Made by a program: the position numbers and the translations under genes. A stretch of 64,000 nt of DNA, from assembly GCA_963770895.1 (NCBI GenBank), contig CAVYRF010000002.1, positions 352,001-416,000 on the forward strand. Direction: 5' to 3'. Below the pieces are notes generated by a model. It did no database searches and was not told the DNA's origin. It saw only the letters and a list, made by a program, of their open reading frames with translations. Within the stretch, counting starts at the first letter, position 1. Every line of letters begins with the position of its first letter. Origin of the DNA: an uncultured Acidobacteriota bacterium (GTDB lineage Bacteria; Acidobacteriota; Thermoanaerobaculia; Multivoradales; UBA5704). This document shows positions 7,694 through 21,934 of this stretch, in pieces.

Positions 7694-7877
7694 CAAGAAA
7701 ACCCAAGGCGGCACCTCCGGGGCGGCCGTCGGGAGGACTCCCCTTGTCGTCGCGCTGCGGGCTCGCGGGCCGGCAAGCGGCTTGGCGGTGAGCCGTATCG
7801 CCAGCGGCTCCCGCATTTGCCTCGCCCCAGAGCGCCGCCAAGTGGACCCTCCCGCCATCCGCCCCTCCCCGGACTGC
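7694..7877 (+). repeat. Dispersed structured intergenic repeat, copy 1 (~185 bp)
   Basis: Reverse complement aligns by eye to 19720-19904 and 12683-12797. Contains complementary segments cttggcgg/ccgccaag and gagccg/cggctc. Confidence 0.85.
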
Positions 7878-8031: not shown

Positions 8032-10056
8032 ATGCGGCGGCTGTGGCTTCTGCTCGGCCTCATCTCATTCATCCTTGGAGTAGGCATGCCCTTGGGGGCG
8101 AATGATCTGTGCGGTACCGTTAGCCCGGAGCTTTCATTGAACCCCAACGCCTGGACTGCCGTCGCCAGGTTGCCAGCCGCCCGCTTCGTGGTTTTCGATC
8201 CGGTTTCGAACTCTTTTGCGTTTGTTTCACCGTGCGTCCCCACCGGCGGCAAAGTCTTATCCTCGGACGAGAAGAACGTGGAAAGGCTCGATCGGCGACG
8301 CCTTGCCTTAACGACGCAGAAGATCAGCCTGCTGATCATGCCCTACAACCCACTCAACGGCGTCGTCACCTTGATATCCACTCTTGGCACCGGAACCGAG
8401 ATCGACGAAACGGTCAAGCAAGACCAGTCCACCACCACCAATACTTCGCCCGCGAATACCGCCAAATCCGGCAAAGGCACTCAGACCGACAAGAAGACGC
8501 CGCGGGCAAGCGACACGAAGCCAAGCGATCAGCATACAGCTCAGGCAGCTACGGGCGCCGGCAAAGTGCTGCAGGATGTGCAGACGAAGGCTGAGAGCGG
8601 CACGTCGCCCTCGCAGACAGCAAGCCAGAACAGGATCAAGTACGCCCCCAAGCAGAGCGGCAGGAGGGTTGGCAAGAATGCGGCCCAGTCCCAGGCAACC
8701 AGCGAGAACACGTCGGACGATGCAGCGCTTACCACTCTGTCCCAAAACGCCGGCAAGGCAGCATTTCGTCAAATGTACCAGAACACTCCTGGTACCAGTC
8801 CCGATTCCAAGGGCAAGGCAGATTACTGGGCCGAGTTGGTCTTCCTTGGCGCCCACGATTTTGACGAGCAATCCAAAGCGGCAGTTCCGGTTCTGGCGAC
8901 GTTGCATCAACATGTTGACTGCGCGACGCAACATGTCGCGGAGATGCCTATTGAGGTCAGCCGGCAATTCAGGAACGATGGTTTCAACCTGGCAAACGAC
9001 ATCACGCTCAAGCAGATCGAGGACGAGGCAAAGAAGCGCCTTGGCGTTCTGAAAAATGCGAGTACCTTCTATAAAGCGTGCACCGATGCAACCGGTGACA
9101 ATGCGCTGGAAGCCGATATCGCGGCTCTCCAGGCGAGACTGAACGCTAGCACCCAAGCGATCGACAGCCTGGCACAGGTTGCGGCCACACAGTCCAGGTA
9201 CCTTGAAATCGCCGCCGCCCTCCCAACTCCGAAAACGCTTTATGATGCTCCGATCACCGCGGATCAATGGAACAGCTGGATCAGTGCCACTCGCGCCGAC
9301 ATCAAGAACGAGCAGTCCGAGGCCCAGGCGCTGCAAACGGAGTTGCAAGACGTGTCCACTGAGGTTGGCAAGTTGCGCAGCGCCGGTGACACGTTCCTGA
9401 GCGCGGTAGCTTCACCTGCGTCGGAGATCCAGCGCTTCAACTTCGTACCGCTGCGCATGAACCAGTCAATCACGTTCAAAATCAGTCGCGGTGCGGCGCA
9501 GAAAGCCGATGGTGACAATGCGGACATCCCGGAACGGGTGAACTCGCTCACCCTGCTGTCGGCTCCAGCCTACCGGGTGCGGTTGGGGGCGGGCGCCGTA
9601 GATTCCTGGCTGGCCAACCCGACTTTCAAGGCGGGGGAGAAGGTAGGCTCGGGGGCGAATGCCAAGACGATCATCTCTGCCGACGACACCGGCGGCAGCG
9701 TTCTGCCCGCGGCCTTCGCCTATCACCATTGGGGCTATCGCTGCCCGTTCCTCGAAGCGACAACGATGGAGCGCCTGCTGCCGACCTTCTCGGTCGGCGT
9801 GGCCGCGGACGGATCCAAGACTTTGCAGCAGGTGCTGCTCGGTCTCACTTGGCCGTTAGCCGACGGTTTTGCGCTCAATGCCGGGTGGCATTGGGGAGAC
9901 GTCAACGGCCTTGAAAAGGGCCTGCACCTGGGCGATGCGGTACCGTCAAGCACCGACGTTTCCACCCTGGTGAGCAAGCGCTATACGGGCAGGGCTTACG
10001 TCGGCATTATCCTCAACTCGGACACGTTCCAGGGGCTGCGCGGCAGTAACAAGTAA
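8032..10056 (+). CDS. Secreted hypothetical protein: low-complexity linker, coiled-coil middle, beta-rich C-terminus
   Basis: 674-aa ORF with signal peptide MRRLWLLLGLISFILGVG, heptad-like Q/E/L/A region and amphipathic beta-like C-terminus. Codon usage is less GC-biased than the flanking genes. Confidence 0.8.
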   Translation: MRRLWLLLGLISFILGVGMPLGANDLCGTVSPELSLNPNAWTAVARLPAARFVVFDPVSNSFAFVSPCVPTGGKVLSSDEKNVERLDRRRLALTTQKISLLIMPYNPLNGVVTLISTLGTGTEIDETVKQDQSTTTNTSPANTAKSGKGTQTDKKTPRASDTKPSDQHTAQAATGAGKVLQDVQTKAESGTSPSQTASQNRIKYAPKQSGRRVGKNAAQSQATSENTSDDAALTTLSQNAGKAAFRQMYQNTPGTSPDSKGKADYWAELVFLGAHDFDEQSKAAVPVLATLHQHVDCATQHVAEMPIEVSRQFRNDGFNLANDITLKQIEDEAKKRLGVLKNASTFYKACTDATGDNALEADIAALQARLNASTQAIDSLAQVAATQSRYLEIAAALPTPKTLYDAPITADQWNSWISATRADIKNEQSEAQALQTELQDVSTEVGKLRSAGDTFLSAVASPASEIQRFNFVPLRMNQSITFKISRGAAQKADGDNADIPERVNSLTLLSAPAYRVRLGAGAVDSWLANPTFKAGEKVGSGANAKTIISADDTGGSVLPAAFAYHHWGYRCPFLEATTMERLLPTFSVGVAADGSKTLQQVLLGLTWPLADGFALNAGWHWGDVNGLEKGLHLGDAVPSSTDVSTLVSKRYTGRAYVGIILNSDTFQGLRGSNK

Positions 10057-10092: not shown

Positions 10093-10124
10093 CGGCGCTC
10101 CCAGGAGCGCCGGCGTTTGCTTTT
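10093..10124 (+). terminator. Putative intrinsic terminator
   Basis: Hairpin cggcgctc-ccag-gagcgccg followed by gcgtttgctttt, just downstream of the 8032-10056 gene. Confidence 0.5.
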
Positions 10125-10146
10125 ATCCCGCAAAAACGGTCAGCGC

Positions 10147-11120
10147 GCCGCAGCCGGCGCGGTGCAGGTCGGTGGGGGCCAGGGTGGGGAGCAGGCGACG
10201 GAGGTCGCGCAGGACCAGGGGCGGGGACAGCGAGCGGCGGATCTCGGCCAGGCCGGTGCGCCAGTGGCGGGCGGCGAAGCGCCAGAAGCCGCGGTAGGTG
10301 AGGATGTCCAGGGTGTCGCGCAGGGAAAAGCTGCCGCGGCGGTAGCCCTCCCGCTTCCAGGCGAGGAGCGCATTGGGGCCGGCTTCGACCTGGCCGCTGG
10401 TCATGCGGGTGAGGTGGAAGCCCAGGAAGGGGAAGCTGGGGTCGGGGACCGGGTAGATCAGGCCGCGGACGCGGCTGCGGGCAGCAGGGTCCAGGTCCCA
10501 ATATTCGCCGCGGACGGGGACGATGCGGATATCCGGCCGGTGGCCGCACAGGCGGGGCACGCGGTCGGCTTGCAGGCCGGCGCAGTTGATCAGCAGCGCG
10601 CAGCTCAGGGGGCCGCGGCGGGTGTCCAGGCGCAGGGCGCCGGGGCGGTTGGGGTCGGGGCGCGCGGCCAGCAGGCGGGCGCCGGTCACAACGTGGCTGC
10701 CGGCGGCGGCGATGCGCCGGGCATAGGCGTTGGCGACGGCGGGATAGTCGACGATGCCGGTTTCGGGCACCCACAGGGCGGCCAGGCCGCCGGCCTGGGG
10801 CTCGAAGTTGCGGATGTCCGCGGCGTCCACAAGCTGCAGGCCCGCCAGGCCGTTGTCGCGGCCGCGGCGCTCCAGGGCGGCCAGCGCCGGCAGCTCTGCG
10901 GGGGTGACCGCCACCACCAGCTTGCCGCAGCGCTCGTGCGCGACGCCCTCTTCGGCGCAGAAGCGATATAGCGCTTCGCGGCCGGCGACGCACAGGGACG
11001 CCTTGAGCAAGCCGGGCTTGTAGTACAGCCCCGAATGAATGACGCCGCTGTTGTGGCCGCTCTGGTGGGCGGCCAGGCGGTCTTCGGCTTCCAGCACGGT
11101 GACCCGCAGGTCGCCGCGCG
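10147..11120 (-). pseudogene. lhgO: Internal fragment duplicate of lhgO (L-2-hydroxyglutarate oxidase)
   Basis: Near-identical to 20083-21056. Lacks the N-terminal GxGxxG FAD motif and the C-terminal NAPSPAATAS. Confidence 0.9.
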
Positions 11121-11239
11121 GGCCATAATCATTCTGTGCTCCGATCTGCACGAGGCGATCGGCAGCCGGCTGTCGATGCGCCAGCCGGAGCACCGTAAGT
11201 CGCAAGATTCTCCCGGCTGCGAGGGAAAGAGGTCCCCGA

Positions 11240-12562
11240 GTGCCTTCCGAAAATGATGCCGAGGATGTCTGGCTGTTCCTGCGCAGCCTTCTGCTCCTTG
11301 GCCTCTTGCTGGTCGTTCTCGTCTCCGCCTGGCCTGTTGCCCCTCTTCTCGCCGTCGCGCTGGCCGGTTGGCGGCTGACCAGGGGACGCTACGCCGTCGG
11401 CTGGATGACCTTACACGAGTTCCTTGGCCCGGTTGCCGCGGGTCTTTCGGTGCTCTGCGCATCGCTGCTCCTGCTCAACGCCTTCGCACTTGGCCAATCC
11501 TGGCCCTTGGCGATCGAAGACTGGGTCGTGCGTATGAGCCTGCGCCTGTGTGATGTGCTGAAGATTCGCCCCGTGGCGGTGATCAGCGGCCTCGCCTGCC
11601 TGCTGCTCGTCAGCTTTGCCGCGCCTCGTCTCAAGCTCGTCAGGAAGATGATCGAGCTGAGAGGTATCCTGGACAAGGTCTGCCTCTTCCTCATGGTGAT
11701 CACCTCCTTTTCTCTCAGCTCGGCGCTCCCGATTAACCATTGGCAACTGGACTCTTCCATCGGGAGGTTCGCCTCCTATGAGGCGAACCTCAACCGTGAG
11801 CGCCGCGCGGCCGACCGAAGAAGGGTTCTGGCGGCGCTCGACGCGGGCGCACATCGGTTGACGTCTACCGATCTGGCCAACCTGCAGCAGCTGTTGGCAT
11901 CGATCGCGGCGCACGTGCCAAGCGGCGACGAACAAGAGGTCGTTCGCGGCGTCCTGCGGGCCGGCCTGGGAAAGGATGTTGAGGCCGCTGCCCCCGGAGC
12001 CGGTGAGACCGGCGAGCCAGCGTTGTCCGACGACACCGCGAAGCTGCGAGACGAACCCGTACCCCATGCCGTCCTCCAGGTGCCCACCAGCGAAGCAGAG
12101 TTGGACGAGGCCGAACGCCAGGTGCACGAAGAAGAACAGCGCGCCGACCAAGCGGAGCGCCGCATGCAGGAAAGCCGCGCCGCGCTGGCTGAATTTCTCA
12201 GTACGGTCGTGAGCGCCGCAATTCCCGAGCTCCATCCCGTCTTAAATGCATACATTGACGATCTGATAGACGTTGCGATCAAGCGGGGCATGGGCGCCGA
12301 TGCCGAGGAAGTCGCAGCCGACAAGGCGAAGAAGATCCTGCGGGCCTCGACCGCGCCTGACGACTCCCAAGCGCCGGAGGAACCCGCCCTGCGGGCCGCG
12401 AGAATGAGAGACTTGGTGGGGAATGTCGCGACTGAGGTCAGGACCGAAAAGCGAGCCGACGCCGCCGCGGCCGCCGCAGCAACAGCGGCCGAGGCCGCAC
12501 GCGAAGCAGTGGAGAGAGAGCAGGCCAGGGCGAGGGAAAGAGCTGTAGAAACAATTCGCTAG
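11240..12562 (+). CDS. Multi-pass membrane protein with C-terminal helical/coiled-coil region
   Basis: 440-aa ORF with several hydrophobic segments in the first ~165 aa and E/R/A-rich coiled-coil-like stretches after. GAGG RBS upstream of GTG. Confidence 0.7.
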   Translation: MPSENDAEDVWLFLRSLLLLGLLLVVLVSAWPVAPLLAVALAGWRLTRGRYAVGWMTLHEFLGPVAAGLSVLCASLLLLNAFALGQSWPLAIEDWVVRMSLRLCDVLKIRPVAVISGLACLLLVSFAAPRLKLVRKMIELRGILDKVCLFLMVITSFSLSSALPINHWQLDSSIGRFASYEANLNRERRAADRRRVLAALDAGAHRLTSTDLANLQQLLASIAAHVPSGDEQEVVRGVLRAGLGKDVEAAAPGAGETGEPALSDDTAKLRDEPVPHAVLQVPTSEAELDEAERQVHEEEQRADQAERRMQESRAALAEFLSTVVSAAIPELHPVLNAYIDDLIDVAIKRGMGADAEEVAADKAKKILRASTAPDDSQAPEEPALRAARMRDLVGNVATEVRTEKRADAAAAAAATAAEAAREAVEREQARARERAVETIR

Positions 12563-12682
12563 AACCATGCAGATTGCATACGAAATTACGCAACATGCGA
12601 TACGCTGCTGTCCTCATCAGGAATCCCCTATGGGAGCACAGCCTTGGCACAGCAGCCCTGAGGACCCGCAGCGTGCGCGGCG

Positions 12683-12797
12683 ACTTGGCGGCGCTCTGGG
12701 GCGAGGCAATGCGGGGACCCGCTGGCGATACGGCTCACCGCCAAGCCGCTTGCAGCCCCGCGAGCCCGCAGCGCGACGACAAGGGGAGCCCTCCCGG
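12683..12797 (-). repeat. Dispersed structured repeat, copy 2 (partial)
   Basis: acttggcggcgctctggggcgaggcaatgcggg...gacgacaaggggagccctccc matches copy 3 directly and copy 1 inverted. Confidence 0.85.
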
Positions 12798-13280
12798 CAG
12801 GCCGCGGACGACTACAAGACGGGGATCTTTGTGCGGCGCGACGGCGCCGAGGCGAAGGGCTGCGACAGCGCACTCCGCGGTCTCACCGGGCGGGCAGTAA
12901 CCCTCATCTGGCCATTTCGCCCGCGTCTTTCGCCTGCGCCTGCTGTGCGTCGTGCGACGGGAAATCCGCTGGCCTTCCAGGTTGAGTCGCAACCGCGGGA
13001 CGGCACCGAAGAGCCGCGGCAAACGTGGCGACGCTTGCGCGCATGGTGGTCACCAATTGCAGATCGAACGCAGCAGCCATCTCAACTGCTTGCTGCGTTA
13101 ACAACCAGGATCTTTGCGAACAGGCTCTCTTCGCGCACACCATGCGGACTACCGGCAGCAACACGCCCTCCAAAAGCGGCAGTGAGATACCGGCAGCTTC
13201 GCCCAGGCGCGCGCGTTGCGGCGAGCCGCCCTGTCGCGTGGAAGGCTCAGCGGGGGGGCAGCTGCCGCGCGTAAGCGGAT

Positions 13281-13553
13281 TCAGCCGCCGTAGGGGTCAG
13301 GTGCTGATCCTTCGTCGGTTTGCGGGTTGGAAGAGGTGCTGGCCGGCCGCCGGATCATCCCCTTGGCAGGTGCTGCCGTGGTCTGCCGCAGCGGCGCCAC
13401 TTCGCCGGAGAGCCATCCCCAGAGCCGGATCAACGGCTCCCAGACCGCGACTGGCCTGCTGCTCTGCGCCTGGAGCGATAAGGCGAAGGATGAAGTGGAG
13501 GCCACTGTCAAGGCAAGGAGTAGGGCGAGGGCGATGATGCGAGGGATACGCAT
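13281..13553 (-). CDS. Small secreted peptide (90 aa) ending TDEGSAPDPYGG
   Basis: AAGGAG RBS upstream of ATG 13553 and signal peptide MRIPRIIALALLLALTVASTSSFA. Confidence 0.7.
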   Translation of the reverse strand: MRIPRIIALALLLALTVASTSSFALSLQAQSSRPVAVWEPLIRLWGWLSGEVAPLRQTTAAPAKGMIRRPASTSSNPQTDEGSAPDPYGG

Positions 13554-13579
13554 GCGGGACTCCTTCCGCGGAGGCGATG

Positions 13580-13920
13580 CGGCCGGCCTGGGGCGAACCG
13601 ACCAGGCGCTTGCCATCCTGCTGCAGGTGCGCGCCGACTTCATCGCCACGGACAACTTCTACGTTGCAGCGCTGGTGACTCTGGAGCTGGCGGAGGTCCA
13701 CGCCGGCCTGGGCCACACGGCCGAGGTCAAGGCGTTGGCCCGCGAGTCGGAGCCGGTGTTCGAGAACCAGCAGGTGCATCGCGAGGCGCAGCGGGCGCTG
13801 GCGCTGTTCCGCCAAGCAGCCGAGGAGGAGAGGGCCAGCGGCGAGCTGCTCCGTCAGCTCATCGTCTACCTCCCCCGTGCACGCCACGATCCGCAGCTGA
13901 GCTTCGCCGCGAGGGCATGA
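13580..13920 (+). pseudogene. C-terminal remnant of a TPR-like helical protein
   Basis: GLGRTDQALAILLQVRADF...AALVTLELAEVHAGLG...VHREAQRALALFRQA is helical-repeat-like with coding-type GC3. No plausible start; the 5' end abuts the peptide gene's RBS. Confidence 0.6.
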
Positions 13921-13987
13921 GCGTCGTGCCAGCACCGTAGCGGCAAAGCGCGGCCCATGCCCGTCAGGGGTGCCGCCTGAATATCCT

Positions 13988-14546
13988 ATGCAGGCGAAGT
14001 ATATTTTTGATCTCGCCACTCGGTCGTCCCACGAAGGGATTGCCTTCATGCATCGCGCCAGGAAACAGGCGACCGAGGCGCCGCTGGAACCGTTGCTGGC
14101 AGTCCGACGAGGGGCGGATGGCACGACCTGGGAGTGCCGCCCGGGCGAGCTCTTCTCCCGGGTGTCGCCGCCGATCGGTGCGCCGCTGCCGAACCAGCGC
14201 GCCTACGTCCTGGCCGGCGAGCTGGAGCCGTCGCCCGTCGGCGTCGAGGGCGAGCTTGGTGCGGCGCTCACTCCGCCGAACGCAGGAAATCCAGGAAGCG
14301 CTCGAAACTGCGCCGCGGCAAGCCGGCGATCGCGCCCAGGACAGCCGACGCGCAGCATGGCCGCTTGACGGCCCCCCACGGCACGCAATAGCATTCCAGC
14401 AATCCACCGAGTTCCCTTCGTCGAGGAGGCGTCGCATGCGGCCTTTCGTCAGTAGAGAGCGCCCGCCAGGGATTCTGCACCGGGCAGCGCTGAAGTTGCT
14501 TGCGGAAGGCAGCCGATGGCCACGTCGGCGATGCGTTTGATTTGCC
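13988..14546 (+). other. Possible frameshifted coding segment upstream of the HD gene (N-terminal extension or separate ORF)
   Basis: Protein-like stretches in successive frames (MQAKYIFDLATRSSHEG..., TQEIQEALETAPRQ..., DGHVGDAFDLP). Confidence 0.35.
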
Positions 14547-16613
14547 ATGGACCCCTTCGTACGCCAGGTCATGCTGGGCTCCGCTCGGTGGTTCATACCG
14601 CCCAACGCCGGGCTGTTTCAAAGCTGCGCCCTTCGCCCCCTTGATCGCGAAGCCGCGTCAAGCGATGAAGCCGCCGATTCCCTGCAGATCATCGCTTTTC
14701 CGGTGGCCGTACGACCGCGCTCCGTGATCGGGCAAGATCCTCTGGCACTGAAACGTCTGTTCTTTTCCCCACTGGTGGTACGCCTACATTACGTGGCCCA
14801 GCTCGCCACCACCTATCTACGAGCCAATATCGACGCGCGCCACTGTCGGCTTTCTCATGCCCTGGGCACTCTCTGTACCCTGAGTTATCTTTGCGACATG
14901 CTTGTCGCAAGGATTGCGAGTGATCCCAAAATCGCCAGCGTCTGCATGCCCACGACGGACGAAGTCATCTTCGCCTTCACCTACGCGGCGTTGCATGACG
15001 CATTTCAAGGGCCCTTCGGCCATACCCTTGATGCCTTGCGCGAAGAGCTGATCGGCGGCCTGGACGCCAGCCGGCGATTGGACAAGACCCTGCTGAACTT
15101 CATCGTCGGCAGTGCGCTCGAACTCAAAGAAACCGGCACAATACCGGGCATGCCGGAGCCGCCGAAGGCGATAAGCGCGCTCTGCGAGGTCCTTGACCAG
15201 GCAGTCGCCGCGCCACTTGGTCTGGATACCACTGCGCTGCTGCGCTGGGTCCACAATGCGAGCCTGCGCGACCCCTCGTCATTGAGCGCCAGCGCGCGGG
15301 AGCGGAGGCGCCAACTGGGATGGCTCTACAGCCTGCTCGAGGGACCGGTGGACGCGGATCGCTGGGACTATCTTTGGCGCGATACTCTCCATCTCGGCTT
15401 CACTCGCGATCACGATTTGATCTCTGAACTGCTGAGGGACTTTTGCGACGATCTCAGGGTGCATTGGGATGGCGAGCAATCGCGCCTGACGGTAAGCCAG
15501 CCGATCGCAAGACGCCTGGACGCAAATTTCTTCGCGCTGCGCAACGAGCTCTATCGCAATGTTTATGAGAATCCAGAGAAGCGGATCATCGACGGCATCC
15601 TATTGCGCTGTATCTATCTTGGCCTCCTCAGACATGCCCCCAAGCCGGCGCGATGGCCGTTTTGGGCACAGGATTTTCACTATTTTGAGTTCCTGCTCAA
15701 CTTTGTCCATTTGACCGACGCCGACCTTCTGTCCATTCTGGAGCAGATCGATAACCCTCTGCTGGCGCTATTCGCGCGCGACATCAGGACCTATCCCGCG
15801 ATCCGGCTCTTCTGGCAAATGATGCTGCCCAGCGAGGAAATCAAAACCACGCTCATCACGTCGTCGCAGAAGCTGACGGCCTTTAAGTACACCGGCATTC
15901 AGCCGCCATCCTGGGCGTCGCCGGACAAGCCCGATTGCACTCCCGCGGAGCGCGTCATCGACGCGCTTACCGCGACCAAGCAGCACCTGCTGGCGCAAGG
16001 CGAGGTGGCGACGATTGGCGGAGACCGGCTCAGATCCCTGCTCCTGCACTGCTCGATCCTCCCCAAGCGACCGGCTCGAGTGCTGCAATTCGAGCGTCTC
16101 GCCTGGAAACTGGTCAAAGCGTTGCTCGCGGGCGCGGGCATTGTCGAATTAATTCACGGCTCGTTCTTGCAAGCCTTGGCGACGACGAGACTTGCGGCTA
16201 ACCAGGCCGGCCAGGAGGACATCGCTTCGCTGCTCGACGAATGCCCGCCATTGTTCGTGTCGTTTCCGTGGATTGCGAGCCTCTCTGAGATGTCGATCAG
16301 CGAGATGTCGCGCGAGCCGGACGAAGAGACGCAGCTTTATGTGCGCACCGACAACGGCCACGTGCAGGCTCGCAAGGCCAAGCCCCTGGACAATGACCCC
16401 GCCATGTACGTAGCCGTGGCTGGCTATCCGTTACACGCCACGAGTCAGTTGAATCCCAGGCAGATCGAGCGGTTCGAGTTCGCGGCGTGCTGGGCGTTGA
16501 ACCTCCTGCTGGACAGTGGCTGTGAGCTTGCGTTGCCGCGCGACCTGGTGACCCCTGAAATGGATTCGGTGATCATCGACTTTCTGTCGCCCGCAGGCCT
16601 GTTCACGGAGTGA
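14547..16613 (+). CDS. HD-superfamily phosphohydrolase, SAMHD1/dGTPase-like, with a long unassigned C-terminal region
   Basis: Motifs RLHYVAQL, RHCRLSHALG, ALHDAFQGPFGH, VDADRWDYLWRD and RNELYRNVY follow the dNTP triphosphohydrolase pattern. Confidence 0.85.
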   Translation: MDPFVRQVMLGSARWFIPPNAGLFQSCALRPLDREAASSDEAADSLQIIAFPVAVRPRSVIGQDPLALKRLFFSPLVVRLHYVAQLATTYLRANIDARHCRLSHALGTLCTLSYLCDMLVARIASDPKIASVCMPTTDEVIFAFTYAALHDAFQGPFGHTLDALREELIGGLDASRRLDKTLLNFIVGSALELKETGTIPGMPEPPKAISALCEVLDQAVAAPLGLDTTALLRWVHNASLRDPSSLSASARERRRQLGWLYSLLEGPVDADRWDYLWRDTLHLGFTRDHDLISELLRDFCDDLRVHWDGEQSRLTVSQPIARRLDANFFALRNELYRNVYENPEKRIIDGILLRCIYLGLLRHAPKPARWPFWAQDFHYFEFLLNFVHLTDADLLSILEQIDNPLLALFARDIRTYPAIRLFWQMMLPSEEIKTTLITSSQKLTAFKYTGIQPPSWASPDKPDCTPAERVIDALTATKQHLLAQGEVATIGGDRLRSLLLHCSILPKRPARVLQFERLAWKLVKALLAGAGIVELIHGSFLQALATTRLAANQAGQEDIASLLDECPPLFVSFPWIASLSEMSISEMSREPDEETQLYVRTDNGHVQARKAKPLDNDPAMYVAVAGYPLHATSQLNPRQIERFEFAACWALNLLLDSGCELALPRDLVTPEMDSVIIDFLSPAGLFTE

Positions 16614-16619
16614 GCGGCG

Positions 16620-17084
16620 ATGAGATGCCACTACTGCGGCGGTGAATCGCGCGTGGTGGATTCGCGGCCGCTGCAAGATGGCATCCGTAGGCGACGGCAA
16701 TGCATTAGCTGCGGCAAGAGGTTCACGACCCACGAGCGCTTGGCGGCGCTTGAGCTCAAGGTCGCCAAGGCGCGCGGCCGTCCGCCTGAGGAGTTTCAGG
16801 CGGCGAAGATTGCGGCCACCATCAAGCGGGTGTGCAAAGGGCTGGAGGTGCCGCCCGGATGCGCCGAGCAAATCGCCAGAAAGATCGAGCGCGAGCTGGC
16901 GGACAAAAACGTCGCCATGATCAGGACGGCTGAGATCGCCGCGATCCTCATGAATGAGTTAGGCGCTGTCAGCGAGGCGGCGCTGGAACGATTTGCCATC
17001 AATTACGCCTTGGATGGGGACGCGGCCCAGAGGCGGCCGGCGTCTTCCATGGAACAGCAGATCCCTCTCTTCGGAGAGGAGTAG
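16620..17084 (+). CDS. nrdR: Divergent NrdR-like protein (Zn ribbon + ATP-cone)
   Basis: MRCHYCGGESRVVDSR...GIRRRRQCISCGKRFTTHER is the NrdR N-terminus; the ATP-cone is recognisable but diverged. Starts 6 nt after the HD gene stop. Confidence 0.85.
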   Translation: MRCHYCGGESRVVDSRPLQDGIRRRRQCISCGKRFTTHERLAALELKVAKARGRPPEEFQAAKIAATIKRVCKGLEVPPGCAEQIARKIERELADKNVAMIRTAEIAAILMNELGAVSEAALERFAINYALDGDAAQRRPASSMEQQIPLFGEE

Positions 17085-17098
17085 CGGGCAACGTGAGG

Positions 17099-17365
17099 TC
17101 AGCGGATTTCGACGCTGCCGATTTCGACCAGCCGCTGTTTGCTGCTGACAAGGTAGACGATCACGAAGGGGTCGGGATCCCATACGCGCTCTCCCGCGGT
17201 GCCGGCGGTGAGGCTGGGAGCGAGCTCCCTGGAGCCGGCAGGCTTGGGATCGTGCTCCAGGCTGAGCAAACGCAGGGCCAGCTCCCTGGCCAACGCGACG
17301 TCGCGCTTCGCCAGCGACCGTACGGCCTCGGCGGCGGGCTCCAGCACTGTAACCTTATAGATCAA
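17099..17365 (-). CDS. RelE/ParE-fold type II toxin (atypical)
   Basis: YKVTVLEPAAEAVRSL...SLEHDPKPAGSREL...FVIVYLVSSKQRLVEI. TTG start overlaps the antitoxin 3' end. Confidence 0.7.
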   Translation of the reverse strand: MIYKVTVLEPAAEAVRSLAKRDVALARELALRLLSLEHDPKPAGSRELAPSLTAGTAGERVWDPDPFVIVYLVSSKQRLVEIGSVEIR

Positions 17366-17627
17366 GGTCGATGGACGCCAGGAAGTCGCGCAGATCGTAG
17401 CGGGGGCCCTGCAGGGCGCGCCGCAGCTGCTCGGCTCGTATACTGTCTTCGATCCCCTGCAAGCGCTTGAAGGTTTCGGCCTCGACCAGGTACGCGGCCG
17501 TTTGATCGCGCTTGCGGATCTCGATCGGCCGGCGGGAAGTGCGCACCTCGTCGACCAGGGAAGAAAACTGCGACTTAGCCTCTGCAATGGCCACAGACCT
17601 GATTCCACCGTCACGCGCTCGACTCAT
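17355..17627 (-). CDS. Phd/YefM family antitoxin
   Basis: SVAIAEAKSQFSSLVDEVRTSRRPIEIRKRDQTAAYLV is the Phd signature; GGAGG RBS. Confidence 0.85.
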   Translation of the reverse strand: MSRARDGGIRSVAIAEAKSQFSSLVDEVRTSRRPIEIRKRDQTAAYLVEAETFKRLQGIEDSIRAEQLRRALQGPRYDLRDFLASIDLDL

Positions 17628-17720
17628 CTGCAGACCTCCCTCGGACTTGCGGTGGACGGGTGATGACCTGACCAGAAAGCCCAGATGGACAGTTTAGACC
17701 AAAAAGCCTAACATGGTCAA

Positions 17721-18530
17721 ATGGATCATGGCGTAGTCGTCTTTGCAGATGTCCTCGGCTTTGGGCGCCTTTCGGAGACGGTGCCGGCTGGTGCGGAGGA
17801 TTCTCTGGCGGCTATCGCGAGCCTCCTGTCGCGCACCGATGTCCTGGGCGACGTGCTCAACCGCCAGAGATGGGCGGCACGTTACGGCCTGAGCGATTCG
17901 CTTTTCCTCGTGGCCACGGACGCCGGAGAAGCCGTCGCGGCGGCAGCGGAGCTCTTCTTCAACCTCGCTTACGTGACGCACGGCGGCCCGACCCCGGTGT
18001 TGATCCGCGGCGGGATCGCGGCCGGAGAGATCCTGCAAGTGGGTCCGCTGTTCCCCGAGTCAGCCATGGCAAACCTCGTCGGACCGGCGGTCGTTCAGGC
18101 GGTGGGCCTGGAGAAGACCTCTCTCAAGGGGCCGCGGCTTTTCATCACCAGCGCACTCGCGGTGGAGATAGAGCGACGCGGCTCCGGGTTGGGCTGGTTG
18201 CTGGATCACCAAGGGAGCACGTGGGAGATCCTTTGGCCGCTGCCGCCGCAACCCGATGCCGCAAACGGCCGCCTGATCGGCGAGCTGTGCGACAAAGCGC
18301 TTGGGCTGGTGGAGCGCAACGCCGGCAACCCGGATGCCGGCAAGCACTACCTTGGATATCTGGATTTGACGATCCGTTCGCTGTCGCGCCTGCTCGCGAC
18401 CCGCCGGGAGCAGGCGATGATTGCCATCGACGCCTCCCGGCTCAAGCAAAGAGCCAACCTGCTTGAGGCGCTCCTGATGTCGCCAGAGTTGGCCTTGGCA
18501 AAGATGCTCGGCAGGCTTGCCGGTCTGTGA
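17721..18530 (+). CDS. Stand-alone class III nucleotidyl cyclase-like protein
   Basis: FADVLGF, LSDSLF, IRGGIAAGE and LVGPAVVQAVGLEK...GPRL match the cyclase-fold pattern with both metal-binding Asp residues. Confidence 0.7.
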   Translation: MDHGVVVFADVLGFGRLSETVPAGAEDSLAAIASLLSRTDVLGDVLNRQRWAARYGLSDSLFLVATDAGEAVAAAAELFFNLAYVTHGGPTPVLIRGGIAAGEILQVGPLFPESAMANLVGPAVVQAVGLEKTSLKGPRLFITSALAVEIERRGSGLGWLLDHQGSTWEILWPLPPQPDAANGRLIGELCDKALGLVERNAGNPDAGKHYLGYLDLTIRSLSRLLATRREQAMIAIDASRLKQRANLLEALLMSPELALAKMLGRLAGL

Positions 18531-18945
18531 TCCTGCGCTGGCGGAGCGCTGGGGAGTGCGAGAAGCGGGCACCAATCCGAGCCGCTGCGTCGACAAGTTA
18601 CCGGAAAAGCGCTGCGAGCGCTTCCTTGTGGGCGCCGAGCTGACCCGTCTCGGCGAAGTGTACGCTGCGGCCGAGCGCAGCGACGCCGAGCGCCGGCGGT
18701 CATCGCCGTTCTCCGGCTCTTGGTCCTGACCGGCTGCCGGAAGTCCGAGATGCTGACCCTACGCTGGGAGGACGCGGACCTTGAGCGCGGTGCCCTGCAC
18801 CTGCCGGATTCCGGGACCGGCCCGAAAAGCGTGCCGCCGGGCGCCGCCGCGGCCGAGATCCTGGCCAACCTCGCGCGTCGCCGGCAACCCGCACGTCGTT
18901 CCTGGCGAGCGCCCGGGTTCGCATTGGGTCAACGTCGACCCTTGG
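18531..18945 (+). pseudogene. Tyrosine recombinase/integrase remnant (frameshifted, truncated)
   Basis: TNPSRCVDKLPEKRCERFL, LTGCRKSEMLTLRWEDADLERGALHLPDS and GNPHVVPG lie in different frames; no HxxR or catalytic Tyr follows. Confidence 0.8.
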
Positions 18946-18954
18946 CTTACCAGT

Positions 18955-19098
18955 GCGAGGAACACTCGGAATCGTGTTGCTCGGCAAGAACACGGAATGC
19001 TTGTCGCAGCTCGCCCCTTGCTCGAATCTCTTCGACAAGCTGGGGTGTACCTGTCCGACTCAGTGATGAATCGCGCTCTGAGGCTCGTAGGAGAATAG
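18955..19098 (+). pseudogene. C-terminal fragment of a DUF3368 (PIN-like) protein
   Basis: (G)TLGIVL, then after a frameshift ARPLLESLRQAGVYLSDSVMNRALRLVGE*. Confidence 0.6.
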
Positions 19099-19197
19099 CG
19101 CGGACCGATGGCTGGCAGCTCGTTGCGATGAGGCGCAGTCACCAGCAATGCCTGCGTCGGGCACGCCGGGAATTCCGCGGCAAGGCGCACGCGGCTG

Positions 19198-19700
19198 TTA
19201 CTTCCGCCTGGAATAAGCCTGCCACAACACCCACAACACCGCGGTCAGGGCGATTGCGGCGACGAGTGCGAGAAAGGCGAGCGTGAGGCTCCCGTGCCCC
19301 CGGTCGTACCGCATCGGCTCGAGGCAGGATTTGGTCGGGTGCTGCGGATCGTACGCCACCCGCACCTCCCTGCCAACTGGATATTGGGCGGCGATGCGCC
19401 GCGCCTCGTAGAGCCCTTCGTAGATTTCGTCGAAGCAGAGGCCCTCGCTCTCGTAGTACGTGCTGCTGCCCGGCTCGAGCTGATAGCTATAGATCAGGTC
19501 CAGATGGTAAAGCGCCGTAGAGTTGCCAAAACGGGCACGGCGGTAGTGGGAAAAGTGGATGCTCGACTGCAGGATCAGGCCTTCGCCTTGGGCCAACCCG
19601 TCGCCTCATGGTGGAGCCGTAGGTTCCGCGCCTCCGAGAAGGCCAGGATGGCCACGTAGAGGAACGCGCAGGCCATTTCGATTTCGCAGGCGACCGAGGC
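19198..19700 (-). pseudogene. DUF3592-family membrane protein, frameshifted near 19592
   Basis: TM segment + ATGWP in one frame continues as QGEGLILQSS...YSYQ...QYPVGREVRVAYDPQHP in another. The break is at a C run, so it may be a sequencing error. Confidence 0.65.
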
Positions 19701-19719
19701 GCCGCTGGAGCCGTCGCTG

Positions 19720-19904
19720 GCAGTCCGGGGAGGGGCGGATGGCGGGAGGGTCCACTTGGCGGCGCTCTGGGGGCGAGGCAATGCGGGAGCCGCTGGCGAT
19801 ACCGGCTCACCGCCAAGCCGCTTGCCGCCCCGCGAGCCCGCAGCGCGACGACAAGGGAGCCCTCCCGTCATCCGGCCCCGGAGCCGCCGCCTGGGGTTTT
19901 CTTG
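19720..19904 (-). repeat. Dispersed structured repeat, copy 3
   Basis: Inverted homologue of 7694-7877, starting just after the lhgO stop. Confidence 0.85.
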
Positions 19905-19911
19905 CCGCAGG

Positions 19912-21165
19912 CTACGCGTGGGCCAGCGCGCCGGCGGCGATTCCGGCGATGTGCTGGCCGATGCTCAGGGAGGCCGTGGCGGCGGGAGAGGGGGCGTTGA
20001 GGATGTGGAGGGTGGGGGGGGTCGAGATGACGTGGAAGTCGTCGATCAGGTTGCCCTGGGGGTCCAGTTCCATGGCGCGGATGCCGCAGCCGGCGCGGTG
20101 CAGGTCGGTGGGGGCCAGGGTGGGCAGCAGGCGGCGGAGATCGCGCAGGACCAGGGGCGGGGACAGCGAGCGGCGGATCTCGGCCAGACCGGTGCGCCAG
20201 TGGCGGGCGGCGAAGCGCCAGAAGCCGCGGTAGGTGAGGATGTCCAGGGTGTCGCGCAGGGAAAAGCTGCCGCGGCGGTAGCCCTCCCGCTTCCAGGCGA
20301 GGAGCGCGTTGGGACCGGCTTCGACCTGGCCGCTGGTCATGCGGGTGAGGTGGAAGCCCAGGAAGGGGAAGCTGGGGTCGGGGACCGGGTAGATCAGGCC
20401 GCGGACGCGGCTGCGGGCGGCGGGGTCCAGGTCCCAATACTCGCCGCGGAAGGGGACGATGCGGGTATCTGGCCGGTGGCCGCAGAGGCGGGCGACGCGG
20501 TCGGCTTGCAGGCCGGCGCAGTTGATCAGCAGCGCGCAGCTCAGGGGGCCGCGGCGGGTGTCCAGGCGCAGGCCGCCGGGGCGGCTGGGGTCGGGGCGCG
20601 CGGCGAGCAGGCGGGCGCCGGTCACAACGTGGCTGCCGGCGGCGGCGATGCGCCGGGCATAGGCGTTGGCGACGGCGGGATAGTCGACGATGCCGGTTTC
20701 GGGGACCCACAGGGCGGCCAGGCCGGCGGCCTGGGGCTCGAAGTTGTGGATGTCCGCGGCGTCCAGCAGCTGCAGGCCGGCCAGGCCGTTGTCGCGGCCG
20801 CGGCGCTCCAGGGCGGCCAGCGCCGGCAGCTCTTCGGGTGTGACCGCCACCACCAGCTTGCCGCAGCGCTCGTGCGCGACGCCCTCTTCGGCGCAGAAGC
20901 GGTACAGGGCTTCGCGGCCGGCGACGCACAGGGACGCCTTGAGCGAGCCAGGCTTGTAGTACAGCCCCGAATGGATGACACCGCTGTTGCGGCCGCTCTG
21001 GTGGGCGGCCAGGCGGTCTTCGGCCTCCAGCACGGTGACCCGCAGGTCGCCGCGCGCGGCTAGCGCCATGGCGGTGGCCAAGCCGACCAGGCCGCCGCCC
21101 ACGACGGCGACGTCGCAAGCGGCCGGCAGTTCCGATGACCGGTTGGCCGGGCCGCTCACCGGCAC
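19912..21165 (-). CDS. lhgO: L-2-hydroxyglutarate oxidase
   Basis: Motifs VVGGGLVG, HQSGRNSGVIHSGLYYKPGSLKA, INCAGLQADR, YPVPDPSFPFLGFH, NAPSPAATAS. GTG start inferred from a GGGAG RBS. Confidence 0.92.
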   Translation of the reverse strand: MPVSGPANRSSELPAACDVAVVGGGLVGLATAMALAARGDLRVTVLEAEDRLAAHQSGRNSGVIHSGLYYKPGSLKASLCVAGREALYRFCAEEGVAHERCGKLVVAVTPEELPALAALERRGRDNGLAGLQLLDAADIHNFEPQAAGLAALWVPETGIVDYPAVANAYARRIAAAGSHVVTGARLLAARPDPSRPGGLRLDTRRGPLSCALLINCAGLQADRVARLCGHRPDTRIVPFRGEYWDLDPAARSRVRGLIYPVPDPSFPFLGFHLTRMTSGQVEAGPNALLAWKREGYRRGSFSLRDTLDILTYRGFWRFAARHWRTGLAEIRRSLSPPLVLRDLRRLLPTLAPTDLHRAGCGIRAMELDPQGNLIDDFHVISTPPTLHILNAPSPAATASLSIGQHIAGIAAGALAHA

Positions 21166-21211
21166 GCAACCGCTCCCGGCGCGCCGGCCAGGGAGGGGCG
21201 GCTGGCCGGGG

Positions 21212-21934
21212 TCAGGGCTGGAGCCTTTCGATCGTCCATTCTTCACCACCGGCGCCACCATCGCCACCATCACCGCCAGCGCTGCTAGCGCTGCCGTCGC
21301 CGCCGGCGGCGGCTTCGCCGCGAGGGCCGGCGTCGCGGCGGCGGTAGACCAGGCGGTCGTGGAGGCGATTGCGGCGGCCCTGCCAGAATTCCACCCGGAT
21401 GGGGCGAAGGCGGTAGCCGCCCCAGAAGTCGGGCGCCGGGATGTCGCCGCCGGCGAAGCGCTGGGCGGCGGCGGCGTAGGCGTGCTCCAGGTCGGCGCGG
21501 CCGGCGACCGGTTGGCTCTGGCGCGAGGCCCAGGCGCCGAGCCGCGAGGCGGCGGGGCGGGTGGCGAAGTAGGCGGCGGTTTCGGCGCGGCTGGTCTGCT
21601 CGACCTGGCCTTCGATGCGCACTTGGCGGTCGAGCGCCGGCCAGTGGAAGGCCAGCGCCGCGTGGGGATTGGCGGCCAGGTCGCGCGCCTTGCGGCTGCC
21701 GTAGTTGGTGAAGAAGACAAATCCGCGCTGGTCGTATCCCTTGAGCAGAACGGTGCGGGCGGAGGGCCGCCCCTGGGGATCGACGGTGGCGAGCGTCATC
21801 GCCGTGGGGTCCAGCACGTCGGCGGCAAGGGCCTGCTCCATCCAGGCGCGGAACTGCGCGACCGGCTCGGGCGCCAGGTCGCGCTCGTCCAGGCCGCCCA
21901 GGGTGTAGTCGCGGCGCAGGTCGGAGACGTCCAT
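21212..21934 (-). CDS. pdxH: Pyridoxine/pyridoxamine 5'-phosphate oxidase
   Basis: Motifs LRRDY, RTVLLK, FFTNYGSRK, RQVRIEG, EFWQGRRNRLHDR, WTIERLQP. Confidence 0.95.
   Translation of the reverse strand: MDVSDLRRDYTLGGLDERDLAPEPVAQFRAWMEQALAADVLDPTAMTLATVDPQGRPSARTVLLKGYDQRGFVFFTNYGSRKARDLAANPHAALAFHWPALDRQVRIEGQVEQTSRAETAAYFATRPAASRLGAWASRQSQPVAGRADLEHAYAAAAQRFAGGDIPAPDFWGGYRLRPIRVEFWQGRRNRLHDRLVYRRRDAGPRGEAAAGGDGSASSAGGDGGDGGAGGEEWTIERLQP

Follow-up and report, generated by a model that had tools for sequence, protein, structure and literature searches.

The stretch analysed here, referred to as the window, comprises 64,000 nucleotides of an uncultured Acidobacteriota bacterium and corresponds to C2:352001-416000 of the searched genome (G000; 8.16 Mb in 3 contigs). 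It carries a gene for a 688-amino-acid (aa) HD protein that is followed after 6 nt by a gene for a 154-aa NrdR-like protein, with a GGAG immediately ahead of the HD stop codon. Judged from the sequence, the two genes form an operon within an acquired cassette. This cassette is real, conserved and rare, its enzyme and repressor families are of known kinds, and the coupling, the cassette and the C-terminal tail of the NrdR-like protein are new. Its parts are the following, in window coordinates.

14365..14394, + strand: candidate sigma-70-like promoter, lying some 150 nt ahead of the HD gene (TTGACG-18-TAGCAT, 9/12 consensus matches)
14547..16613, + strand: HD gene, predicted SAMHD1-type phosphohydrolase and probable deoxynucleoside triphosphate (dNTP) triphosphohydrolase, 688 aa, ATG start
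16620..17084, + strand: NrdR-like gene, Zn ribbon, ATP-cone and C-terminal tail, 154 aa, ATG start
17058..17072, + strand: codons of Q147-I-P-L-F151, the Q-x-x-L-F tail motif, beta-clamp-binding-like, from the subfamily alignment
17099..17365, - strand: putative toxin of ParE/RelE type, 88 aa, with a TTG start that overlaps the Phd gene end, frame kept in the metagenome contig L005
17355..17627, - strand: Phd/YefM-family antitoxin, 90 aa (PF02604 E 3.9e-11; TIGR01552)
17721..18530, + strand: 269-aa protein, class III nucleotidyl-cyclase fold (residues ~1-180) and helical C-terminal part, from the predicted model and Foldseek

An earlier note on this DNA had described the two open reading frames (ORFs) at 6 nt from each other, with a toxin-antitoxin (TA) pair, a cyclase-like gene and an integrase remnant as neighbours. 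Both ORFs and their spacing were confirmed, and the Phd-type pair, the cyclase-fold gene and the integrase fragment were all found in place. The note had also stated that no nrd or rib genes are in the window, and neither a gene for the large subunit of ribonucleotide reductase (RNR) nor ribD was found in it, the only copy of the former being at C2:2578804 and ribD at C2:304443-305705. By consensus match only, four sigma-70-like sites were counted in positions 13800-18700, against 0.6 expected.

The HD protein had no NCBIfam or PADLOC match and no Pfam family even at E<=10, hence no Pfam HD domain (PF01966). When compared with the PDB sequences by phmmer, it matched SAMHD1 chains (best E 2.3e-6) over a region covering the H..HD and D-x-D-x-W-D-Y-x-x-R-D motifs. 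The metal ligands H104, H150-D151 and D271 align with the HD motifs of SAMHD1 and were invariant or nearly so in an alignment of 13 sequences (A1). The AlphaFold2 model (predicted local distance difference test, pLDDT, 80.5; predicted template modelling score 0.82) had as first Foldseek matches SAMHD1, its C. elegans orthologue and the dNTPase EF1143 of Enterococcus, all with a probability of 1.00. Residues 25-658 of the model were aligned by VIA on residues 113-579 of SAMHD1 (Z 24.3, root-mean-square deviation 4.5, 418 residues aligned) and, because the alignment spans that much of the model, the protein can be described as a single SAMHD1-type core with about 200 inserted residues and no extra domain. 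The catalytic core superposes whole on both SAMHD1 (4bzc_D, Z 24.3) and EF1143 (PDB 2o6i/3irh, Z 22.8), and the protein shares with SAMHD1-like dNTPases the H..HD..D ligands and a D-x-D-R-W-D-Y-x-x-R-D motif. It differs from SAMHD1 in its low identity (about 14%), the missing Pfam HD match, the insertions, the lack of a SAM domain and the replacement of His210 by Gln154. The assignment of a SAMHD1-like HD hydrolase made in the earlier note was therefore supported by sequence and by fold, and the predicted fold and intact metal ligands indicate that the protein probably hydrolyses dNTPs.

This HD family is small. A protein search over 5.8 billion clusters returned 13 proteins, and the HD profile, run against 1.84 billion representatives, gave 8 rows above 300 bits with the next at 163 bits (31 rows at E<=1e-30 and 1410 at E<=1e-3). 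The nearest Atlas clusters are generic HD clusters in which 67-86% of the members carry PF01966, to be taken as a lead only. Relatives were found in none (0/400) of the other genomes of the phylum, in none of 185,579 species genomes, and in neither the viral contigs nor the plasmids searched (the latter by tblastn). One other, weak relative was detected in the same genome, at C2:562467 (E 3.2e-5).

In Pfam, the 154-aa protein matched Zn_ribbon_NrdR at E 2.8e-15 and, starting only at position 10 of the profile, ATP-cone at E 2.1e-8. Its score on the TIGR00244 equivalog model was 78.3-78.9 bits, under the cut-off of 124.65. A canonical nrdR, whose presence the earlier note had proposed to check, was found in the same genome at C2:2532492-2532932, 2.2 Mb from the window, with 194.2 bits on TIGR00244. 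The two proteins are 38% identical over 132 residues, and the window gene is therefore a second, divergent nrdR-type copy. A protein search placed it in a subfamily of 27 proteins, 38-68% identical to it and apart from the canonical NrdRs. In a tree of 79 rows, the split between 38 subfamily and 41 canonical members had a support of 100 in the Shimodaira-Hasegawa-like approximate likelihood ratio test (SH-aLRT); the tree was built twice, with the tail columns kept and then removed, with the same outcome. The window protein formed a clade with P0015, P0016, P0017 and P0018 (SH-aLRT 97 and 98), in which three of the five members (the window protein, P0015 and P0018) are known to be HD-linked.

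As regards the residues expected of a repressor, the zinc cysteines C3, C6, C28 and C31 (two CxxC) and the equivalents of the DNA-contact residues (R11, D14, R16, R23-26 and R34) are invariant or nearly so in the subfamily alignment (A3), and the zinc-ribbon loop is 2 residues shorter in the subfamily. In the S. coelicolor NrdR complex (PMC9110341), DNA is contacted by R12, R26-29 and R37, D15 and R17 read the bases, R51 contacts a phosphate at the inner site, and V127 packs on the deoxyribose of dATP at the outer site. The nucleotide-contact residues K50, E57, F59, K63 and Y129 of the ATP-cone (K50, E56, F58, K62 and Y128 in S. coelicolor) are kept, and across the subfamily the R51 equivalent is non-basic and the V127 equivalent is Asn or Asp. 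These changes may represent a shift in which nucleotide switches the protein. Viral matches to the NrdR-like profile (A3) were confined to the Zn ribbon. It was observed that 17 viral contigs (L037-L053) encode proteins related to the Zn ribbon only (query ~1-40 to 1-77, 36-66% identical) and that PHROGs families of unknown function hit this same region (phrog_36879, E 1.3e-9). Such phage ribbons, which lack the ATP-cone, might compete at NrdR boxes.

At the C-terminal end, after a variable linker, a Q-x-x-L-F motif was found in 26/27 subfamily rows versus 1/84 canonical-type rows. The narrower form Q-[ILFYM]-x-L-F occurs in 25/27, the remaining two ending in QPGLF and QLDLL; in alignment A3, Q147 and L150 do not vary, and F151 reaches at least 90% conservation. 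The one canonical-type exception, P0122 (175 aa, 33% identical), ends in QQELF, and tails of this kind may thus occur beyond the subfamily. Since subfamily members that have no HD gene retain the tail as well, it is not an HD-docking device. The bacterial clamp-binding consensus is given as a C-terminal QL(S/D)LF in PMC9690074, and the phage Mu transcription factor MuC is reported to use the sliding clamp (PMC12867686). The sliding clamp may be the partner of the NrdR-like tail and is the obvious, if putative, candidate. A literature search, judged by titles, retrieved no link between NrdR and the sliding clamp.

The two genes also stand together in the metagenome contig L005 (6343 nt, 54.5% GC), where an HD homologue (1962-4058) is followed after 3 nt by a gene for a 154-aa NrdR-like protein. 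Compared with the window by tblastx, the HD genes were 61% identical over 334 codons, the NrdR-like genes 55% over 130, the Phd antitoxins, on the opposite strand, 77% over 83, and the cyclase-fold genes 51% over 188; the toxin frame was 36% identical over 165 codons, which cover both the toxin gene and the Phd gene, the latter as read in the frame of the toxin. Since synteny goes past the HD/NrdR-like pair, the conserved unit is made up of the HD gene, the NrdR-like gene, the Phd/ParE-like pair and the cyclase-fold gene, in fixed order. The Phd/ParE-like pair, placed between the two larger genes, is its most conserved part. It resembles type II TA systems of the Phd/YefM-ParE/RelE kind in the clear family assignment of the antitoxin and in the small overlapping toxin ORF at the position expected downstream, and differs from them in that the 88-aa toxin ORF of the window had no significant match in Pfam or PDB; the L005 toxin homologue weakly matched ParE_toxin (E 0.0092, 17 bits versus a cut-off of 23).

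For the other HD homologues, linkage was inferred from equal sizes of the longest contig per protein, L005 being the only case verified by sequence. By this means, an NrdR-like partner was found among the matches listed for 4/13 HD proteins, namely that of the window, P0002/P0015 (6995 nt), P0005/P0018 (L005) and P0013/P0038 (2247 nt). A cyclase-fold partner was found for 6/13, five by equal contig size among the matches listed and L005 by tblastx. Three proteins (P0003, P0004 and P0007) had a cyclase-fold partner only, and six of the 13 had neither partner among the matches listed. These partner lists are incomplete, since the 269-aa protein of L005 itself is not listed under a contig of 6343 nt. 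Four distant HD relatives (L006-L009, 23-24% identical) had no NrdR-like neighbour.

The 269-aa protein had no match in Pfam (PF00211 included), PADLOC or the PDB sequences. Its model (pLDDT 92.8) retrieved at the top of the Foldseek results only class III adenylyl/guanylyl cyclases (5o5l, 7yzk, 1wc3 and 2w01; probability 1.00, about 190 aligned columns). The presumed metal ligands D10 and D59 are invariant in the family (A4). The cyclase transition-state Asn/Arg, at presumed positions that we assigned by eye, are not conserved, the former being an invariant Val (V125) and the latter variable, with Gly in the window. The family has at least 79 members among the matches listed. The gene was absent from the 400 other genomes of the phylum (0/400), from the viral contigs and, by tblastn, from the plasmids, and was present in 1/301 genomes of the class of the metagenome-assembled genome (MAG) G401, with an in-frame TGA (L055/L056, G564:C73:43564-44310). 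There, it and a Phd-family gene are arranged head to head, the same layout that the window shows, and no HD or NrdR-like gene lies nearby.

The cassette lies in an island of about 9 kb whose other features are listed below.

10147..11123, no strand assigned: left 978-bp direct repeat, 3' fragment of a DAO-family flavin adenine dinucleotide (FAD) oxidoreductase gene, 96.3% identical to the right copy (PF01266 on ORF 10123-11205, - strand)
20083..21060, no strand assigned: right 978-bp direct repeat, inside the full-length DAO-family gene 19912-21150 (- strand), where synteny with genome G365 begins
14066..14122 and 19687..19743, no strand assigned: 57-nt repeat, 93% identical, whose copies bracket the HD-to-integrase segment
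18517..19286, + strand: tyrosine-integrase remnant, truncated and in two frames (ORFs 18517-18729 and 18720-19286; PF00589 E 0.0022 over residues 1-52 of ORF 18720-19286, below cut-off)
19198..19596, - strand: DUF3592 protein, 132 aa, island cargo (PF12158 E 8.6e-11)
11240..12562, + strand: 440-aa island ORF without family match
13327..13920, + strand: 197-aa island ORF without family match

The copies of the 978-bp repeat bracket the insertion, and a full-length copy together with a 3' fragment of the DAO gene is the pattern that an element inserting in the 3' end of a gene and bringing a replacement end would leave. GC is 0.61-0.63 over 14-18 kb versus 0.70-0.74 immediately to the right. Synteny with G365, a genome of the same family, runs from 19951 rightward to ~28.9 kb and ends at the 3' end of the DAO gene, which is the island edge. 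The island was horizontally acquired, as indicated by the phylum-wide absence of the HD and cyclase-fold genes, the flanking repeats and the synteny break, and the island of the earlier note was thus upheld as an acquired one. PHROGs returned only weak matches of unknown function. A short repeat (57-183 nt, 93-95% identical) was seen four times in and around the island, at 7698-7877 (- strand), 12683-12796, 14066-14122 and 19687-19900; these copies may be what is left of att sites, or else represent a small repeat element. To the left, 8032-10056 (+ strand) contains a 674-aa ORF with a signal-peptide-like start, a long low-complexity region and no Pfam match, where GC falls to the window minimum (0.60). 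This stretch may be non-native too, its G365 homologue being placed on another contig. From four soil-metagenome DNA runs compared with positions 12000-21500, only short contigs (~150-620 nt) were obtained. Most of them matched the window without differences, and they represent the same organism at low depth, possibly in the source samples, which bears on neither mobility nor expression.

In species genomes, 11 loci of the NrdR-like subfamily (L011-L021) were found, in 10 MAGs labelled Thermoanaerobaculia or Acidobacteriota, with scores of 190-238 bits on the subfamily profile versus 121-147 for canonical rows. Their neighbours encode MscL, BNR/sortilin proteins, phosphodiesterases, a beta-lactamase-family protein, an SLT transglycosylase and an extracytoplasmic function (ECF) sigma factor, and do not look like defence genes. 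G401 carries two NrdR-like copies (L013 and L015) in near-duplicate surroundings, with BNR/sortilin upstream and two type I phosphodiesterase genes downstream. In four of five MAGs with the subfamily, no canonical NrdR was found (on TIGR00244, the sub-cut-off type only), and G403 has both. Among 101 genomes of the class of G401, canonical NrdR exceeded the cut-off in 95 (94/100 when the unpublished genome G409 is left out), and the divergent type occurred in G401 only.

NrdR boxes stand at the genes that NrdR controls, often its own. In G000, the single RNR gene is preceded by the box CCACTAGATATTGTGG, which lies about 100 nt ahead of the first ATG, and this is the best NrdR box of the whole genome. 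This box was used as the template for a non-circular count (>=11/16 matches, either strand), which replaced an earlier position weight matrix that was circular because it had been trained on RNR boxes of the MAGs. The genome holds 1177 single template matches and 0 pairs spaced 31-32 nt. In all three MAGs without canonical NrdR whose RNR upstream region could be retrieved (3/3), this region has two NrdR-box-like 16-mers exactly 31 nt apart, as listed here.

G401, L057: 1861 and 1892 (1861-1907), paired boxes at RNR; the pair flanks TTGACA
G402, L059: 219 and 250 (219-265), paired boxes at RNR
G404, L058: 1864 and 1895 (1864-1910), paired boxes at RNR

In the published NrdR arrangement, a linker of 15-16 bp separates two boxes of 16 bp each (PMC13584703). 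Because paired boxes are kept at these RNR promoters, the subfamily would be a working RNR repressor in the MAGs concerned and, on these sequences, it seems to replace canonical NrdR in some Acidobacteriota. A previous candidate finding, that MAGs without canonical NrdR lack RNR boxes, had been obtained with a strict CAC-N8-GTG pattern with an AT-rich core, and was dropped since the promoters hold degenerate paired boxes.

Upstream of the HD gene, by contrast with what transcriptional control by the NrdR-like protein would predict, neither a pair of NrdR boxes nor a strong single box was found in the window or in L005. The window as a whole has 8 single matches in 64 kb, approximately the chance rate. 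The two HD upstream regions also had no operator-like inverted or direct repeat in common. Many imperfect CCGGGCAAC-like words occur upstream of HD in L005 (1540-1740), together with a 12-nt direct repeat at 1706 and 1727, and nothing alike was seen in the window.

The reading that we tentatively favour, although we give it rather less than an even chance, is that of a mobile dNTP-lowering operon, in which the HD enzyme removes dNTPs while the extra NrdR keeps RNR off. The two proteins would lower the dNTP supply by parallel routes and would not act as sensor and effector. The HD enzyme would hydrolyse dNTPs, and the NrdR-like protein would bind the host RNR promoter and stop RNR from switching on to compensate. 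Because two nucleotide-contact positions differ, the protein may not release DNA at falling dATP, unlike the host NrdR. Through its Q-x-x-L-F tail, it may be attached to the sliding clamp and thereby to replication. The altered ATP-cone and the clamp-like tail would set the timing of the RNR hold. The purpose could be to counter the replication of phages or plasmids, or to arrest growth under stress; anti-phage defence is plausible, if on the unlikely side. Several observations weigh against this reading. An HD-family gene was present in the fetched flanks of none of the 11 subfamily loci (0/11), and the pairing could be a passenger association. Among the matches listed, 9/13 HD homologues had no NrdR-like partner, four of them on contigs of 22 kb-2.08 Mb. 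At the 11/16 threshold, the RNR promoter of G000 itself has only one box. The ATP-cone differences are an alignment reading against residues named in a single paper (PMC9110341). Finally, no other recognised defence gene was found on the island, PADLOC-DB 2.0.0 returning 0 families for 12 island and L005 proteins at E<=0.01. As for the conservation of the linkage in other genomes, it was verified in L005 and suggested for two more HD homologues, and it did not extend to the representative loci of the NrdR-like subfamily, all of which are HD-free (11/11).

The earlier note had instead proposed that the NrdR-like protein may sense phage-driven nucleotide changes and control the HD enzyme, by transcription or by binding. 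In this model, it would keep the HD operon repressed, or restrain the enzyme in the way that type II antitoxins restrain their toxins, and a phage-driven ATP/dATP shift would release the enzyme. The tight and conserved coupling of the two genes is consistent with this proposal, as are the ATP-cone with its kept residues K50, E57, F59, K63 and Y129 and the separate clade formed by the HD-linked copies; it can also be argued that an unrestrained dNTPase should harm its host and would call for a dedicated inhibitor. With neither a box pair nor a strong single box ahead of the HD gene, be it in the window or in L005, the transcriptional form of the claim finds no support in these sequences, and the two upstream regions share no operator-like repeat. 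Furthermore, since HD is missing at all of the loci (11/11) where the subfamily occurs with its invariant tail, neither evolved for HD, the NrdR-like protein was not invented as an HD sensor, and the claim of a sensor co-opted for HD gave way to that of what seems an ordinary RNR repressor. A complex prediction for HD (A1) and NrdR-like (A3) scored 0.00 ("no answer") and counts neither for nor against binding. Altogether, a sensor-effector relationship appears unlikely.

If the cyclase-fold protein were at the centre, it would make a nucleotide signal on infection or stress. The receiver would be either the NrdR-like protein, through its ATP-cone, or HD, through an allosteric site, with dNTP depletion as the output, a logic that resembles Pycsar or CBASS. 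The cyclase-fold gene shares a contig with HD for 6/13 HD homologues, its class III fold retains both metal aspartates (D10 and D59), and the NrdR of S. coelicolor has affinities for cyclic di-AMP and for ATP that are comparable (PMC9110341). Such signalling is nevertheless highly improbable, considering that the transition-state Asn/Arg are not conserved, that there is no Pfam or PADLOC cyclase match, and that at least 79 cyclase-fold members are listed versus 13 HD proteins, the other retrieved locus (L056) being without HD or NrdR-like genes. It is also conceivable that no functional link exists and that a spare dNTPase, a spare NrdR from an Acidobacteriota-type lineage, a TA pair and a cyclase-fold gene travel on a mobile element independently of one another. 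Every component family is distributed more widely and separately, and the island also bears an unrelated DUF3592 gene and two ORFs of no family. However, hosts of 54% and ~62% GC share the order and orientation of the genes and the distance of 3-6 nt between HD and NrdR-like at 50-77% protein identity, which would be hard to maintain without selection on the unit, and independent cargo is consequently disfavoured and appears distinctly improbable.

These elements could be joined in one broader claim, which we regard, taken as a whole, as very improbable. The cassette would then be a four-part mobile immune system in which a clamp-tethered NrdR variant reads replication load and adenine-nucleotide state. 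On the arrival of foreign replicating DNA, the host RNR promoter would be locked while the SAMHD1-type enzyme destroys dNTPs, synthesis and pool being cut together. The cyclase-fold protein and the Phd/ParE pair would provide signal and addiction, and, through the clamp, a whole NrdR subfamily would tie the transcription of RNR to the replisome.

The depletion of dNTPs is a proven antiviral strategy in animals, where it is exerted by SAMHD1, and in bacteria, and to our knowledge it has always been described as the work of a single enzyme. If the favoured reading is true, a cassette uniting a dNTPase with a repressor of dNTP synthesis would work with both hands, blocking the compensating feedback of the host, and may be a new way of starving invading DNA of building blocks. 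Through a clamp-binding-like tail, RNR transcription would be in direct connection with the replication machinery, and no such link has been described for NrdR. Among the papers listed, the literature search retrieved none with a dNTPase-NrdR pairing, an anti-phage NrdR or ATP-cone, or an NrdR paralogue (the last judged by title), and ATP-cone, defence system and phage were found together for crAss-like phages only. With no PADLOC model matched either, the view of the earlier note that the pairing is undescribed as a defence system stands.

When the cassette is set beside known systems, the NrdR-like protein shares with S. coelicolor NrdR (PMC9110341) the two-CxxC Zn ribbon, the RRRR stretch, the D15/R17 pair, the equivalents of K50, E56, F58, K62 and Y128 in its ATP-cone and a length of ~150 aa, and differs from canonical NrdR in its sub-cut-off score, shorter loop, altered R51 and V127 equivalents, Q-x-x-L-F tail and standing as the second copy of its genome. 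Unlike NrdR, the window gene sits behind a putative dNTPase gene on a mobile island, away from nrd genes. Its tail is like that of clamp-binding proteins (PMC9690074) in being a short Q-hydrophobic-x-L-F that ends a variable, probably disordered linker. With regard to defence by nucleotide depletion, the HD protein would act as a stand-alone HD dNTPase that starves phage DNA synthesis and is patchily distributed on islands, and in these respects it is comparable to the dGTPase/dCTP-deaminase defences. Tal et al. reportedly described in 2022 how a dGTPase and a dCTP deaminase protect bacteria against phages by dNTP depletion. Unlike these systems, the HD protein has no PADLOC match, and its gene is paired with that of an NrdR-type repressor, within a cassette that also carries a TA pair and a cyclase-fold gene.

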